A DNA stretch of 64,000 nt from Enterobacteria phage Aplg8, in sequence record NC_054902.1. The stretch is one strand, 5' to 3'. A model generated the notes under the pieces. It searched no databases. It was given only the letters and a program-made list of their open reading frames with translations, and was not told where the DNA came from. Made by a program: the position numbers and the translations under genes. Within the stretch, counting starts at the first letter, position 1. Each line of letters opens with the position of its first letter. Shown here in pieces: positions 48,445-56,881 of this stretch.

Positions 48445-50032
<1,588 letters not shown>

Positions 50033-50039
50033 AATAAAA

Positions 50040-50053
50040 TGGGCCTTGCGGCC
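50040..50053 (-). terminator. hairpin GGGCC-TTGC-GGCCC downstream of nrdB
   Basis: 5-bp GC stem between the nrdB stop and the denA start. Confidence 0.5.
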
Positions 50054-50059
50054 CACTCC

Positions 50060-51238
50060 TTAAAAGTATTTTTTAAAACTCATCATAACTTTATCATCAA
50101 CATCATTATCAATCTGTGCAACAAGATAAGATGACAGCTCTACTTCTTGCGGTGCAGATTGAACATTATCAGAATTAAGATATTCACGAATCCAAGGATA
50201 TGGATGTTTAACCGGAGCATCGGTAATTGGGCATGGAAGACCACACTGTTTCATACGAGATACAGTTAAGTAATCAATAAAGCTCCACATGCTATTTGTA
50301 TTTAATCCAGGAACATCGCCATCTTTAAATAAATGAACTGCCCAATCTTTTTCTTGGCGGTTAACTTCCATGAAAATATCAACTGCTTCTTGTTCACACT
50401 CTTGAGCAATTTTAACCCATTCATCGCCATCAGTACCAGATTGAAGTTGACGAATAATATATTGGGTGCCTTTAAGGTGAAGCTGTTCATCGCGTGCAAT
50501 GAACTTCATAATCTTGGCATTACCTTCCATGATTTCCATGTTCTTATGGAAGTTAAAGGTACATGCGAAAGATACATAAAAACGAATAGCTTCCAATGCA
50601 TTGATTACATGCAAACAGAGGTAAAGAGATTTCATTAGCTCACGCTTCCAATATGTCTCATGCTCAATAGCATCTTCAATAACGTCTTCGTCTGCATTAA
50701 TTTCTTTTTGGTATTCGATATCAGCTTTAGCGTTTTCCCAATAACGAGTTTTAATCAGAACATCATCATAATAACGTCCAATGGATTCAGCACGTTTCAT
50801 AATAGCTTCATCTAATACAATTTCATCAAATACCTTCGATGGATCAGTATAAAGATTTCGCATGATATGAGTATATGAACGACTGTGAATAGTTTCACTA
50901 AAAGTCCATGTAGCAACCCATGTATCAAGGCTTGGGTCTGAAATTAATGACATAAGTACAGCAGATGGCGCGCGACCCTGAATGCTATCTAAAAGTGATT
51001 GATACTTCAAGTTGTTAGTAAAAATATTTTGCTGATACTGAGGAAGCTTATTAAACTGTGCAGCATCCATCATCAAGTTTACTTCTTCGGGACGCCAAAA
51101 AAATGATAAAGATTTCTCAATAAGTTCTTCAAATACTCTATGTCGTTGAATATCATATCGAGCTAAACCCAATCCAGAACCAAAAAACATCGGCTCAGTC
51201 AAAATATTAACAGGGGATGTATTAAAAACTGTGCTCAT
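50060..51238 (-). CDS. nrdB: ribonucleotide reductase small subunit (uninterrupted)
   Basis: 392-aa continuous ORF with di-iron/tyrosyl radical R2 features; no intron. Confidence 0.93.
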   Translation of the reverse strand: MSTVFNTSPVNILTEPMFFGSGLGLARYDIQRHRVFEELIEKSLSFFWRPEEVNLMMDAAQFNKLPQYQQNIFTNNLKYQSLLDSIQGRAPSAVLMSLISDPSLDTWVATWTFSETIHSRSYTHIMRNLYTDPSKVFDEIVLDEAIMKRAESIGRYYDDVLIKTRYWENAKADIEYQKEINADEDVIEDAIEHETYWKRELMKSLYLCLHVINALEAIRFYVSFACTFNFHKNMEIMEGNAKIMKFIARDEQLHLKGTQYIIRQLQSGTDGDEWVKIAQECEQEAVDIFMEVNRQEKDWAVHLFKDGDVPGLNTNSMWSFIDYLTVSRMKQCGLPCPITDAPVKHPYPWIREYLNSDNVQSAPQEVELSSYLVAQIDNDVDDKVMMSFKKYF

Positions 51239-51968
51239 AAATTTTCCTCTTTAAAATTCTGCCGCGTTTCCAACCTGGCGGTATAATATCATCTTTACCT
51301 ATAAGCGTGCATTCACTTCCATTATTAATCCATTTCTTACCGCGGATTCCTTTATAATCTCTTGGTTGTATTTTATCAAACTTTGCATCAAGTTGATATG
51401 ACCATCTAAATCCATAGGCATATTGAAATTTACCCTCAGCACAATATTTGATATTTGACCCGTTTCCATTAACTGACCTGGACGCTGCCGCAATAGAGTG
51501 AAAGGTTTCTATGAAATCCCCATCTAATGAGAATTTATGTATTTCGATAGATGGGCATGCATACCTATTCACGTTTGATACATGTTGTTTAGTTTCGTTT
51601 TTATGATGCTTGCCTAACATTCCTCTAGGATGAGGATTATTTTTCCAATATTTCTTAAAGAAATCAGAATTAGCTTTAGCAAATAATTTTCTGTGCAAGC
51701 TATACAATCTGTTATTAATTCTATTACCAGCTTTATCTGTTGCCATTAACGTTAACGCAGAGGCAAGCCCAAAATGGCCTTCATTTATCTTACATAGTAA
51801 TAGATGCGCTATAAAATGTTCTCTAGCTGTTAATTCAACTAAATTTTCTTTATCATCAGAACCTCCCATGCATTTAGGGACTATATGATGTGTCTCTTTA
51901 TATTCAGATAAAGGTTCCCGAGCCTGAGCTCGGGAAATTAGGTCATTATAGATTTTTTGATAATTCAT
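51222..51968 (-). CDS. mobE: HNH homing endonuclease (MobE-like) between nrdA and nrdB
   Basis: 248-aa ORF; HNH motif HHIVPKCMGGSDDKENLVELTAREH; C-terminal basic DNA-binding region; ATGA overlap with nrdA. Confidence 0.75.
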   Translation of the reverse strand: MNYQKIYNDLISRAQAREPLSEYKETHHIVPKCMGGSDDKENLVELTAREHFIAHLLLCKINEGHFGLASALTLMATDKAGNRINNRLYSLHRKLFAKANSDFFKKYWKNNPHPRGMLGKHHKNETKQHVSNVNRYACPSIEIHKFSLDGDFIETFHSIAAASRSVNGNGSNIKYCAEGKFQYAYGFRWSYQLDAKFDKIQPRDYKGIRGKKWINNGSECTLIGKDDIIPPGWKRGRILKRKIYEHSF

Positions 51969-54232
51969 TACAATTTACACGCTGCACAATCGTCGGCTTT
52001 AGGAGTTTCTATTTCATAATCATCAGTACCAGAACCATCACGGGTATTATGATAATAGAAATTTTTAATGCCATAATACCATCCATATAGCATGTCATCA
52101 ATCATTATTGACATTGGAACCTTTCCTTTTGGAAAAATCTGCGGGTCATAGTATGTATTCGCCGAAGCTGATTGACAAACCCATTTCAGCATAATAGCTA
52201 CCTGTGTAAGATAAGGTTTATTACCTTTCTTAGCTAATTTCCATGTATAGTCGTAAAGGTCTATGTTATGCTCAATATTGGGCACGACCTGATTAAAGGA
52301 GCCCTCTTTTGATTCTTTAACAGAGACTGGTCCACGTGGAGGCTCGATACCGTTTGTACTGTTAGAAACTTGGGAAGATGACTCACATGGCATAAGTGCT
52401 GATAATGTGCTATTACGGATGCCAAAGAGCTTAAGGTCTTCCCGCAGCGCCGACCAGTCACAAACGTATTTTGGAGCTGCGATTTGGTCAATCTTTTTAT
52501 TGTACCAGTCGATAGGTAATTCGCCTCGAGACCAACGAGTGTCTGAATAATATTCGCAAGGTCCTTTTTCTTTGGCGAGCTTAATGGATGCTTTAATGAG
52601 TCCATATTGTAATCTCTCAAATAGTTCATGTGTTAAATCGTTAGCATCTTCATAAGAAGCAAAGTTACTTGCCAGCCAAGCTGCATAGTTAGTAACACCT
52701 ACACCGAGGTTACGACGCTTTTTAGCTTTTTCTGCTTCAGGAACTGGATATCCTTGGTAATCCAAAAGATTATCAAGAGCACGAACTTGGACTTCTGCCA
52801 ATTCATTAATTTTATCTTGGTCTTGCCAGTCAAAATTATCCAGTACGAATGCAGAGAGAGTACACAATCCAATTTCAGCATCAGGACTATTCACATCATT
52901 TGTTGGAATAGCAATTTCACAGCACAAGTTACTCTGACGAATAGGTGCCTTTTCACGAATAAATGGAGTATAGTTATTCGTATTATCAATGAACTGCACA
53001 TAAATCCTTGCTGTTCCTGAACGTTCAGTCATGAGCAATTCAAATAGTTCACGGGCTTTAATACGCTTTTTGCGAATATTAGGGTCTTTTTCTGCTGCTT
53101 CGTATAATTCACGGAAACGGTCTTGGTCTTTAAAATAAGAATAATAAAGCTCGCCACCCATTTCATGCGGACTGAACAAAGTAATGTAATCGTTCTTTCC
53201 GAATCGTTCCATCATCAAATCATTCAGCTGAACACCATAATCCATGTGACGAATGCGGTTTTCTTCTACGCCTTTGTTATTTTTCAAAACGAGAAGATTT
53301 TCAACTTCCAAATGCCAAATAGGATAATAAGCAGTAGCAGCGCCGCCACGAATTCCACCCTGTGAGCATGATTTAACTGCAGTCTGAAAATGTTTCCAAA
53401 AAGGAATAACACCAGTATGGCGTACTTCACCCATGCCAATCTTAGAACCTTCAGCACGAATCATACCAACGTTAATACCAATTCCAGCGCGTTTAGAGAT
53501 ATATTCAACAATTGAAGCGGAAGCCTTATTGATAGACTTTAATGAATCACCTGCTTCAATAACAACGCATGAACTAAACTGCCGAGTTGGAGTACGGCAA
53601 CCAGCCATAATAGGAGTTGGTAGTGAAATCTGTCGAGTAGATACTGCTTCATAAAAACGAATAACGTGTTTTAATCTATCAACAGGTTCATCTTGATGCA
53701 ATGCCATTCCAATAGTCATAAATGCAAACTGTGGAGTTTCATAAATTTGACCGGTGGTTTTATCTTTGACTAGATATTTTTCTTTTAATTGCATCGCTCC
53801 GGAATAAGTAAATTCCATATCCCGCTCGTGCTTAATTTTTGATTCTAAAAATGTAATTTCTTCCGCAGAATATTTTGACAATAATTCAGGGTCATATTTC
53901 CCTTCATTTACGCAATAAGAAATATGGTCAATAAATGAACGCGGTTCATACTGCCCGTAAACATGCTTACGAAGAGCAAACATTAAACAGCGTGCAGCTA
54001 CATATTGATAATCAGGCTCTTCAACCGAAATAGAATTCGCAGCAGCCTTAATGACAATAGTCTGAATATCATCAGTTGTCATTCCATCACGGAGATAAGA
54101 TTTAATATTTTCATATAATTCATAAGGATCTACTGATGTTCCCTCAGCTGCCCAAGATAAAACTTTAATAATTTTTTGTGGGTCAAAGCTCTGAGAAACA
54201 CCACTACTTTTGGTAACATTAATTAATTGCAT
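51968..54232 (-). CDS. nrdA: ribonucleotide reductase large subunit
   Basis: 754-aa ORF; class Ia R1 with C-terminal redox cysteines (CAACKL). Confidence 0.96.
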   Translation of the reverse strand: MQLINVTKSSGVSQSFDPQKIIKVLSWAAEGTSVDPYELYENIKSYLRDGMTTDDIQTIVIKAAANSISVEEPDYQYVAARCLMFALRKHVYGQYEPRSFIDHISYCVNEGKYDPELLSKYSAEEITFLESKIKHERDMEFTYSGAMQLKEKYLVKDKTTGQIYETPQFAFMTIGMALHQDEPVDRLKHVIRFYEAVSTRQISLPTPIMAGCRTPTRQFSSCVVIEAGDSLKSINKASASIVEYISKRAGIGINVGMIRAEGSKIGMGEVRHTGVIPFWKHFQTAVKSCSQGGIRGGAATAYYPIWHLEVENLLVLKNNKGVEENRIRHMDYGVQLNDLMMERFGKNDYITLFSPHEMGGELYYSYFKDQDRFRELYEAAEKDPNIRKKRIKARELFELLMTERSGTARIYVQFIDNTNNYTPFIREKAPIRQSNLCCEIAIPTNDVNSPDAEIGLCTLSAFVLDNFDWQDQDKINELAEVQVRALDNLLDYQGYPVPEAEKAKKRRNLGVGVTNYAAWLASNFASYEDANDLTHELFERLQYGLIKASIKLAKEKGPCEYYSDTRWSRGELPIDWYNKKIDQIAAPKYVCDWSALREDLKLFGIRNSTLSALMPCESSSQVSNSTNGIEPPRGPVSVKESKEGSFNQVVPNIEHNIDLYDYTWKLAKKGNKPYLTQVAIMLKWVCQSASANTYYDPQIFPKGKVPMSIMIDDMLYGWYYGIKNFYYHNTRDGSGTDDYEIETPKADDCAACKL

Positions 54233-54549
54233 AAGTCCTCAACTTGAAAATCGTCTTTAAACAATCGGTTAACTATATGAGCTATTATATCACCATGACA
54301 CGGCTTTGGTTTACATGTGCATCCTAGCCTCATTCCACGTAAAGGCTCTAAATGTGCTTTAGTTATTTCTCCGGATTTAATTCGACGTATAAAATCTTTT
54401 TTGAATAATTCAATGGCAGCCTCCCGGCTGCCAGCATCTTTACCGACGTAATTTCCCCAAAATGTACCACGGTGAATATTAACATCAAAGTCGGATTTGT
54501 ATTTATTCACTACCCGGCATAGACGGCCCACGCTGGAATAATTCGTCAT
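54223..54549 (-). CDS. hypothetical protein (T4 nrdA.1 position) with conserved Cys/His cluster
   Basis: 108-aa ORF; C-x-C...C-H-G-D segment. Confidence 0.6.
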
Positions 54550-54778
54550 ATTGTTTTTCCGTTAATACAGTAATATCATAGTAACAATCGGAAGAAGTTT
54601 TAACTGTGGAAATTTTATTATCAAAATACTCACGAGTCATTTTATGAGTATAGTATTTTTTACCATAAATGGTAATAGGCTGTTCTGGTCCTGGAACTTC
54701 TAACTCGCTTGGGTTAGGAAGTGTAAAAAGAACAACACCAGAAGTATCTTTAAATCGTAAAATCATATATCCTCGCAA
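54503..54778 (-). CDS. hypothetical protein (T4 nrdA.2 position)
   Basis: 91-aa ORF. Confidence 0.55.
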
Positions 54779-54786
54779 TAATAAAA

Positions 54787-55647
54787 TTACACCGCCATCT
54801 TTCCTTTAATAGGAGGGTGTGATTCATAGTTGTTAAGAATAAAATTATGCGGCTTTGCGAATTGACTCAACCAAAATACCTGCGATTCTGTGTCCCATTC
54901 ATCAAATTCATCTGGAAATTTTAATTGCAATTCGCATAAATCCATAGGTTCACGACGCAAAATTTCTTTACATTGCTCTACGTGATTCATATAGATATGA
55001 GTATTACCACCAGAAAATATCAAATCTCCGGGAATAAGATTACACATCTTAGCTACAATATGCGTCAAGGCAGCGTACGAGGCAATGTTGAATGGCAAGC
55101 CCAAGAAAACATCTACACTTCTTTGGTACCACTGCAAATCCAAATAGCCATTACGCACATTAAACTGATAGAACATATGACAAGGCGGTAATGCCATATA
55201 TTTAAGTTCAGCTGGATTCCACGCAGAAACAATTTGACGCCTATCATTCGGCAGTTTTTTAATACGATCAATAACTTCTACAATTTGGTCTACACCGCCA
55301 AAATCACGCCATTGTTTTCCATAAATTGGACCAAGTTCACCGCTATGGTATCCTAAATCTTTTGCCTGATTTTCGTAATTTTCATCCCAAACTGTTTTGC
55401 CTTGGATTAATGAATCATGCTGAATTAATCGTAAATCATTGACATTTGTGCTTCCTGACAAAAACCATATTAACTCAGCAATGCATGCATTCCAGGCGAG
55501 CTTTTTAGTTGTTACTGCAGGAAAACCTTTGGTTAAATCCCAACGCAATTTAGTACCGAACAAAGCAATTGTTCCTGTGCCTGTTCGGTCATCGGTTTCA
55601 TAACCATTTTCAAAAATGTCTTTAATTAAATCTTGGTATTGTTTCAT
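54787..55647 (-). CDS. td: thymidylate synthase (uninterrupted)
   Basis: 286-aa continuous ORF; active-site region PPCH..FYQ; no intron. Confidence 0.96.
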
Positions 55648-55684
55648 TTAGTACCTTATATAAATTATAATACATTTTATGAAG

Positions 55685-56050
55685 CTAATAATTAAACGGT
55701 TTAGCATCAAATTTTCTCTCAATTTCAGGCGTGAAATATAATTCTTTACCGCGTTTGGAAAAACGACCAATAATATGATAATTATTCTCATCAAACGTGA
55801 TATTGCCGATATCCATAGCTTTCAACCAAATATCGATATTTCTGTCAAGCTTTATATCAAAATTCCAATACGGAGAACTATTACCAAAAATACTGCAAGC
55901 GGATTCAGTGAAACAACTGCTATAAATTTTGTCTTTAGGAACTATTAATTGATAGACGCCTTTAATAAACTGAGGACCTTGCCATTTTGGTTGTTTCGCG
56001 TCTTTTTCTAATAGAATAGGGTAATAATTAAAATTCATATTTTCCGCCAC
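55685..56050 (-). CDS. hypothetical protein inserted between frd and td
   Basis: 121-aa ORF filling a 411-bp gap between the frd stop and the td start. Confidence 0.6.
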   Translation of the reverse strand: MAENMNFNYYPILLEKDAKQPKWQGPQFIKGVYQLIVPKDKIYSSCFTESACSIFGNSSPYWNFDIKLDRNIDIWLKAMDIGNITFDENNYHIIGRFSKRGKELYFTPEIERKFDAKPFNY

Positions 56051-56058
56051 GTATTATT

Positions 56059-56881
<823 letters not shown>

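Follow-up and report, generated by a model that had tools for sequence, protein, structure and literature searches.

The window analysed here, the whole stretch of 64,000 nucleotides from Enterobacteria phage Aplg8 (NC_054902.1), reads as DNA of a T4-like phage of the genus Tequatrovirus. Taking the following features together, we consider it very probable that this is a Tequatrovirus in which td and nrdB are free of introns, in which a mobE gene of the RB3 type lies between nrdA and nrdB, and in which a block of about 1 kb around that gene is the footprint of MobE homing.

The four genes concerned are all on the minus strand. In the direction of transcription they are td (thymidylate synthase; 54787..55647, an uninterrupted ORF of 286 aa; Pfam Thymidylat_synt, E 5e-95), nrdA (51968..54232, 754 aa; Pfam ATP-cone, Ribonuc_red_lgN and Ribonuc_red_lgC), a free-standing HNH homing endonuclease gene here annotated as RB3-type mobE (51222..51968, 248 aa), and nrdB (50060..51238, an uninterrupted ORF of 392 aa; Pfam Ribonuc_red_sm, E 9e-37). 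The original prediction, that td and nrdB are without introns and that a free-standing HNH gene of the MobE family separates nrdA from nrdB, is borne out: both genes are colinear with the spliced exons of T4, and the 248-aa ORF is where it was proposed to be. An ORF of 121 aa located between frd and td was considered as a possible mobile insertion, and was ruled out as such. It is a conserved gene (phrog_1928), present in 553 records and missing, exceptionally, from T4.

Spliced T4 td has the same length, 861 nt, as td of the window, and the two align codon for codon; in a blastn comparison with T4 (NC_000866) exactly the 1017-nt td intron is missing. No group I intron was found after td nt 549, either as an insertion of about 1 kb with an I-TevI ORF or as an ORF-less insertion of 250–320 nt. 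Similarly, exactly the 598-nt nrdB intron is missing in the same type of comparison; the gene is continuous across the site following the T of ...TTTGCGT, with none of the 598–1091 nt that a group I intron would occupy there. The NrdB protein aligns end to end with that of T4 and departs from it only in a short variable loop; phage JLBYU24 shares this 392-aa form. Searching the whole window with the T4 td, T4 nrdB and RB3 nrdB introns (blastn) returned only chance matches, the best at E 0.04, and a tblastn search of the whole window found no homologue of I-TevI or of RB3 I-TevIII at E <= 1e-3. Rfam also reported no group I intron, either in the whole window at gathering thresholds or in 49900-56200 at E <= 1. 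However, this result carries no weight, because in a control the same scan also missed T4's own introns at the T4 locus; alignments and BLAST were used instead.

This condition is common. Among 50,697 phage records, roughly 485–580 T4-like records cover the region. A full-length td intron is found in about 197 records (any td intron match in 260) and the nrdB intron in about 118, so that roughly 55–60% of T4-like phages are without the former and about 75–80% without the latter. Being without introns is thus the condition of most T4 relatives, and nothing special has to be invoked to account for it; these introns either never invaded the phage or have been lost from it. The combination of intron-free td and nrdB with mobE is likewise an ordinary layout, already known in many sequenced T4 relatives, and is shared by JLBYU24, Sf23 and G9062. 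The suggestion that the locus is in a special state is therefore not upheld, whereas its description as intron-free genes accompanied by a MobE-family HNH gene stands.

The td gene is 860/861 identical to that of phage Sf22. Its C-terminal part contains a variable segment (nt 691-810; 54838..54957, minus strand) whose amino acid sequence is unlike that of T4, T2 or RB3, with 70 nucleotide differences from T4 in 120 nt; JLBYU24 and Sf22 have the same variant.

More relevant to homing is the site at which the td intron would insert. Following published definitions (PMC2988022, PMC5009752), a cleavable I-TevI site was taken to consist of a CNNNG motif, with C1 and G5 present, at 23–25 nt upstream of the insertion site, together with a 20-bp binding region centred on that site. 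The empty homing site of the window (-27 to +11; 55088..55125, minus strand) reads CAAAGAAGTGTAGATGTTTTCTTGGGC upstream and TTGCCATTCAA downstream of the insertion point, which is between 55099 and 55098. It agrees with the T4 intron-deleted site at 28/38 positions. The ten changes include position 4 of the cleavage motif, which is CAACG in T4 and CAAAG in the window, four spacer positions beside the motif, and -1, +1 and +3 at the insertion site. C1 and G5, the critical bases, are retained at the correct distance. No published data on I-TevI cleavage of CAAAG were found in the searchable texts.

The cleavage and binding region is covered by a divergent 70-nt patch (td nt 520-590; 55058..55128, minus strand) that resembles Mosigvirus. 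Of the 56 positions at which td differs from JLBYU24, 22 are inside it (binomial P about 2e-10); in the same comparison, 14 of its codons differ, 12 of them synonymously. Identity to Mosigvirus ST0 is 94% within the patch, compared with 78% and 65% in the td sequence on either side. Present in 218 phage records, this is the commonest intron-less td allele. T4-type flanks were considered as the common intron-less allele and ruled out, exact T4 flanks being found only in T4 and its laboratory derivatives.

These changes might mean that the window-type site is a refractory or poor substrate for I-TevI, that is, an immunity allele spread by short-patch gene conversion, and that the td intron would not readily enter this phage. 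Such a reading would fit the changes in the cleavage motif, the spacer and the insertion site, their concentration on the endonuclease site with mostly synonymous effect, and the abundance of the allele; furthermore, I-TevI acts poorly on many CNNNG triplets (PMC5009752). However, the two bases retained are the only critical ones, and I-TevI is very tolerant of substitutions: the T2 site has 6/38 differences from T4, yet T2 inherits the td intron at high frequency (PMC2790892). Nature also provides introns in this context. In phage G8 a full td intron is followed by an exon 2 that is of the window type from +7 onward, in HMD-9 a td intron of 254 nt comes straight after a window-type exon 1 that includes CAAAG, and Mosigvirus SQ17 has an I-TevI-type td intron with the same exon-2 context as in the window. 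A refractory td site is therefore possible but doubtful.

It is also improbable, in our view, that td became intron-free secondarily, through homing of a Mosigvirus-like intron that co-converted about 70 nt of exon and was later lost precisely, so that the patch would be a scar. The close match of the patch to ST0 in a td that is otherwise much less similar, and the same exon sequence flanking the SQ17 intron, are what this history would leave behind, and the patch runs from the cleavage site to about +40, which is the expected range of co-conversion. Against this, no intron remnant was found in the window, and direct recombination with an intron-less Mosigvirus td accounts for the patch equally well. 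In addition, position -1 is C, where simple loss would leave T; T is present at -1 in all the intron-bearing td genes whose exon 1 was read (T4, T6, RB3, ECO4, MLP2, SQ17, CGG4-1, G8 and HMD-9).

The empty intron site of nrdB, which includes the I-TevIII cleavage region (50553..50602, minus strand; insertion between 50563 and 50562), is much closer to its counterpart. Compared with the spliced site of T4 and RB3, it is changed only at -35, -32, -5 and -2, and is the same from -31 to -6 and from +1 to +30. Cleavage by I-TevIII is at -14/-16 (PMC1865063), and these positions are unchanged, so that the site is predicted to be cleavable. The proposed check, alignment with T4 to see whether the insertion sites are intact, thus gives a nearly intact site for nrdB; for td, C1 and G5 are kept but the ten positions noted above are changed. 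Judged by sequence, the phage may plausibly be a natural recipient for intron homing, with less certainty for td.

The HNH gene has the place and the N-terminus of mobE. It is situated in the nrdA-nrdB interval and not within an intron, and its start codon shares a base with the stop of nrdA (TAATGA, with 51968 common to both; TTGTAATGAAT), an arrangement described as a feature of MobE (UAAUGA; PMC2988022). Its first 57 residues are the same as in T4 MobE at 55 positions, the HNH residues included, and cover most of residues 33-62, whose deletion from T4 MobE abolishes nicking (PMC2790892). The N-terminal HNH nuclease motif of MobE is therefore present, although in Pfam the HNH match scores 19.3 bits, below the 21.4-bit cut-off; NUMOD1 scores 25.8 bits, and the protein matches the PHROG 655 homing endonuclease at E 2e-57.

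Past about residue 105 the protein resembles neither T4 MobE nor NrdB.1, and the C-terminal (DNA-binding) part is thus of the RB3 type and lacks homology to the corresponding region of T4 MobE, the characterised enzyme. Over the 185 C-terminal residues there is 100% identity to the mobE annotated in RB3, RB5 and RB9, and the protein is identical to that of JLBYU24 at 242/242 residues. From its sequence, the gene belongs to the mobE locus family, with a C-terminal allele other than that of T4 MobE, the sole enzyme studied. Calling it MobE-like was hence correct as to family, provided that it is not taken to be T4's own version. The protein is 97–100% conserved in about 53 phage records with different backbones, which makes it unlikely that the ORF is a decayed gene.

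Two regulatory elements are predicted within mobE. In its 5' end there is a G+C-rich hairpin followed by a T-rich tract (51915..51936, minus strand), identified by a terminator scan as a predicted intrinsic terminator (-16.7 kcal/mol). Its stem is the same as in T4, and it matches the internal terminator of T4 mobE, whose function was shown in T4 only (PMC2790892). In the 3' end, the pattern GCTTAT-N12-TATTAT (51283..51306, minus strand) is a possible MotA-type middle promoter for nrdB; the nrdB middle promoter of T4 sits in the 3' part of mobE (PMC2790892).

The surroundings of mobE are foreign to the rest of the locus. A profile of differences per 100 nt against Sf22 and JLBYU24, together with a base-by-base comparison of the nrdB 5' end, shows that the backbone is almost identical to that of the mobE-less phage Sf22 outside a block of about 1 kb (51100..52150, minus strand), which takes in mobE together with ~180 nt at the 3' end of nrdA and ~140 nt at the 5' end of nrdB. 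There are 0–2 differences per 100 nt from Sf22 over frd, td, nrdA.2 and nrdB below 51100, and 3–9 in part of nrdA. Over 52100-51301, there are only 0–1 differences per 100 nt from JLBYU24. Nucleotides 1-150 of nrdB are unlike both phages, and the junction is at about nt 140-150.

We infer that this block is a tract of mobE homing and co-conversion, because its end falls just past the known nick site of MobE. T4 MobE nicks nrdB at nt 122-126, within a polymorphic region at nt 114-131, and in T4 the recombination points lie in the 3' end of nrdA and the 5' end of nrdB, with inheritance dependent on the HNH motif (PMC2790892). In the window, the equivalent of the nick site (nrdB nt 114-131; 51108..51125, minus strand) has AAA as codon 42. 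Its codons 43-45 are TCT TTA TCA, for which the five phages used in the comparison (T4, T2, RB3, JLBYU24 and Sf22) provide no match, and the right-hand junction is about 15–25 nt further on. MobE would have nicked nrdB of a mobE-less phage at nt 122-126, as in T4, and repair from a co-infecting genome carrying mobE would have copied in the gene together with some flanking sequence. This takes the target and activity of the RB3-type protein to be like those of T4 MobE, an assumption by analogy: nicking was shown for T4 MobE only (PMC2790892), and its presumed DNA-binding C-terminal part is unrelated to that of the RB3 type. A further difficulty is that the 5' 150 nt of nrdB are not of the type present in the carriers of RB3-type mobE examined (JLBYU24 and RB3), and that no record holds the nrdB junction of the window, the best full-length match being 88%. 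To account for this, one has to assume two or more exchanges, or else a donor that has not been sampled. Ordinary homologous recombination between co-infecting phages, with no endonuclease involved, could also give the same mosaic around mobE.

On the basis of the two short divergent segments, td nt 520-590 at the I-TevI site and nrdB nt 1-150, with its unmatched codons 43-45, at the MobE nick site, one could propose that both are selected alleles that evade endonucleases and move between T4-like genera by short-patch gene conversion. We regard this as rather unlikely; if it were true, the phage would be a resistant target and not a naive recipient. Least probable of the readings considered is that this mobE is no longer mobile and is retained for the expression signals of nrdB (promoter and ribosome-binding site) in a mosaic due to ordinary recombination: the location of the T4 nrdB middle promoter would select against deletion (PMC2790892), the window has the promoter-like pattern, and RB3 and JLBYU24 carry this mobE with nick-site sequences equal or nearly equal to that of mobE-less T2, but the ORF is intact, the protein is conserved across backbones with the same HNH residues as active T4 MobE, and the block boundaries coincide with the end points of the conversion tracts that MobE initiates when T4 is crossed with T2 (PMC2790892).

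That T-even phages vary in intron content, and that mobE is inserted at the nrdA-nrdB junction, is knowledge dating from the late 1980s and the 2000s. With many sequenced genomes sharing the layout, the finding alone matters little. Its modest value is that it shows, cleanly and in nature, a probable mobE conversion tract set in what is otherwise the backbone of a mobE-less phage. It also shows that the commonest intron-less td allele is substantially unlike the I-TevI substrate used in the laboratory, which is relevant wherever intron-less T4 relatives are assumed to be all equivalent as homing recipients.

The closest known counterpart of the mobE gene is that of RB3 (KM606994, RB3_226), with the same gene in RB5, RB9, JLBYU24 and Sf23. 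It occupies the same locus, with the same one-base overlap of its ATG and the nrdA stop. It encodes 243 aa compared with 248 aa in the window, where an A-run at the 3' end differs by one base, so that the usual stop is lost, five codons are added and a 17-nt overlap with nrdB results. RB3 itself carries both introns, with I-TevI and an intact I-TevIII, whereas the window has neither, and the nrdB 5' end of the window is of another sequence type. The T4 mobE has its insertion site, TAATGA overlap, internal terminator hairpin and nearly identical residues 1-57 in common with the window. However, the T4 locus is annotated as mobE (141 aa) and nrdB.1 (83 aa) where the window has a single ORF, and the nearest T4 relative of the C-terminal part is MobB, a weak match at 29% identity. 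For the T4 td intron with I-TevI and the nrdB intron with I-TevIII, the window has the target genes and insertion sites and is without the introns and endonuclease genes. T2 and Sf22 resemble the window in their uninterrupted td (286 aa) and nrdB (392 aa) and in having the ORF between frd and td, but have only a spacer of ~51 nt between nrdA and nrdB in place of mobE; the td of T2 is another intron-less allele, with fewer differences from the T4 site (six, against ten in the window). Finally, Hef of phage U5 is a free-standing endonuclease at the same nrdA-nrdB hotspot that targets nrdB, and is described as a unique endonuclease distinct from the HNH protein MobE (PMC2988022); this description sets it apart from the gene in the window, which is of the MobE type.

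The genes considered here lie in a nucleotide-metabolism cluster of the standard T4 type, all on the minus strand: frd (56059-56640), a conserved ORF of 121 aa (55685-56050), td (54787-55647; 286 aa), nrdA.2 (54503-54778), nrdA.1 (54223-54549), nrdA (51968-54232), an HNH gene of 248 aa (51222-51968), nrdB (50060-51238; 392 aa), denA (49622-50056) and rnlA (48445-49605). Used as a megablast query, positions 49600-56700 matched 1007 phage records, 485 of them with at least 80% query coverage and nearly all of these Tequatrovirus and relatives; the top match was phage JLBYU24 (96.5%). The 121-aa ORF is phrog_1928, a conserved gene of unknown function that occupies the same position in 553 phage records, Klebsiella phages among them, and is wrongly labelled dihydrofolate reductase or homing endonuclease in some records. 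The exception is T4, in which frd and td overlap and this ORF is missing.

Alignment to T4 (NC_000866) shows that td in the window is without precisely the 1017 nt of its T4 intron, and nrdB without precisely the 598 nt of its own. td is 861 nt in both the window and spliced T4, aligning codon by codon, and the NrdB proteins align end to end, the sole difference being a short variable loop which the window has in common with JLBYU24. Neither T4 or RB3 intron DNA nor homologues of I-TevI and I-TevIII, the endonucleases of the td and nrdB introns respectively, were found across the whole 64 kb. The original prediction, that both genes are without the group I introns of T4 and their endonucleases, is thus borne out. 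An Rfam scan of the window also gave no group I intron, but was given no weight because the same scan is blind to T4's own introns. With Rfam 15 at gathering thresholds, the td and nrdB introns within T4 134000-147000 go unreported, the probable reason being the large loops in which they hold ORFs, and a negative scan is therefore no evidence against ORF-bearing phage introns.

The layout is common. Among the roughly 485-580 T4-like records spanning the region, 197 have a td intron with 80% or more coverage of the T4 one (260 have any match) and 118 have the nrdB intron at this coverage; most records thus lack the td intron, and a large majority lack that of nrdB. The combination of intron-less genes and mobE also occurs in JLBYU24, Sf23, G9062 and others, each as one colinear match. 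In its homing endonuclease load it is T4 that is the oddity (Edgell review, PMC2988022). Some Tequatrovirus genomes carry the td intron in an ORF-less mini form (320 nt in MLP2, 254 nt in HMD-9).

The HNH gene had been called MobE-like, which is right. T4 MobE is identical at 55 of residues 1-57 (97% at the DNA level), a stretch that includes the HNH motif; past about residue 105 the protein resembles neither T4 MobE nor T4 NrdB.1. Over its C-terminal 185 residues it has 100% identity to the annotated mobE of RB3, RB5 and RB9, and 97-100% identity across about 53 records; over its whole length it is the same as the JLBYU24 protein. It contains a NUMOD1 domain and matches PHROG 655 (homing endonuclease; E 2e-57). 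The ATG of the gene and the stop of nrdA overlap (TAATGA), and the 5' coding region of the gene has the same G+C-rich hairpin as T4, where this is an internal terminator (PMC2790892, PMC2988022). The gene is thus the RB3-type allele of mobE. The A-run that precedes the nrdB start differs by one base (51219-51245, minus strand), which removes the usual stop, so that the gene ends 17 nt inside nrdB and encodes 248 rather than 243 aa (five extra codons), leaving the nrdB Shine-Dalgarno sequence AAGAGG unaffected. Nicking activity has been demonstrated for the T4 allele, whereas that of the window is a different one. Self-immunity by target polymorphism has been proposed for T4 MobE but is not an obvious fit for the RB3-type allele; the target of this allele may be a different one, or it may cut the genome that carries it.

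The surroundings of mobE are mosaic. Phage Sf22 has no mobE, its nrdA-nrdB spacer being just 51 nt, and its td is identical to that of the window at 860 of 861 positions. In a 100-nt profile, the window has 0-2 differences from Sf22 per 100 nt across frd, td and nrdA.2, 3-9 in part of nrdA, and again 0-2 in nrdB below about 51100; it departs from Sf22 between about 52150 and 51100. Over 52100-51301, which takes in the nrdA end and the greater part of mobE, it matches JLBYU24 exactly or almost exactly. The first 150 nt or so of nrdB are unlike both, with T4 closest; codons 43-45 (TCT TTA TCA) are matched by none of five phages compared, and Sf22-type sequence returns at about nt 140-150. T4 MobE nicks T2 nrdB at nt 122-126, and progeny of T4 x T2 crosses have their recombination points within the 3' end of nrdA and nt 1-189 of nrdB (PMC2790892). 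Because its boundaries fit these positions, the block is shaped like a natural tract of mobE homing. The nrdB junction is absent from every record in the collection (best full-length match 88%), so that either the donor is unsampled or more than one exchange took place. Among carriers of RB3-type mobE, nrdB nt 100-147 (the nick-site region) is identical to that of mobE-less T2 in JLBYU24, and nearly so in RB3.

The insertion sites, which the original prediction proposed to check against T4, are well kept in nrdB and less so in td. The nrdB site equals that of T4 and RB3 save at -35, -32, -5 and -2, and the I-TevIII cleavage positions, -14/-16 (PMC1865063), are unaltered. The 38-bp I-TevI site in td (-27 to +11) has 10 differences from intron-deleted T4 (CAAAGAAGTGTAGATGTTTTCTTGGGC/TTGCCATTCAA against CAACGCTCAGTAGATGTTTTCTTGGGT/CTACCGTTTAA), with C1 and G5 of the CNNNG motif, the critical bases (PMC5009752), unchanged. 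Relative to JLBYU24, the nearest overall relative, td has 56 differences, and 22 of them are inside nt 520-590 (P about 2e-10), which spans the cleavage motif through about +40; 12 of the 14 differing codons there are synonymous. With Mosigvirus ST0 this patch shares 94% identity, against 65-78% for the remainder of td, which points to exchange with the Mosigvirus lineage.

The window-type site is common (218 records). The RB3-type site gave 143 full-coverage matches, most being the T2-like intron-less allele and a few short-intron phages, and the exact T4 flanks are confined to T4 strains. G8 has a full td intron and a window-type exon 2 from +7; HMD-9 has its mini intron beside a window-type exon 1 including CAAAG, with T at -1; and the intron of Mosigvirus SQ17 has the window-type exon-2 context. 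In HMD-9 and G8 recombination junctions lie a few nt from the insertion site. A further variable segment, td nt 691-810 (54838-54957, minus strand), encodes about 40 residues before the conserved thymidylate synthase end; it is unlike T4, T2 and RB3, is common to JLBYU24 and Sf22, and differs again in ST0, making at least three allelic versions.

T2, a proven recipient, has 6 differences from T4 in the 38-bp site, compared with 10 in the window. Given that the T2 divergence is tolerated, that C1 and G5 are kept and that introns occur beside window-type exons, homing into the window td allele is plausible. The original prediction was therefore correct in its observation and partly so in its interpretation of the phage as a homing recipient and an informative case of mobile-element turnover, which was overstated, the layout being common, the td site diverged from that of T4 and the mobE allele RB3-type. 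There is no departure here from known T-even biology: the mobE conversion tract and the td homing-site patch are tidy examples of processes already known.
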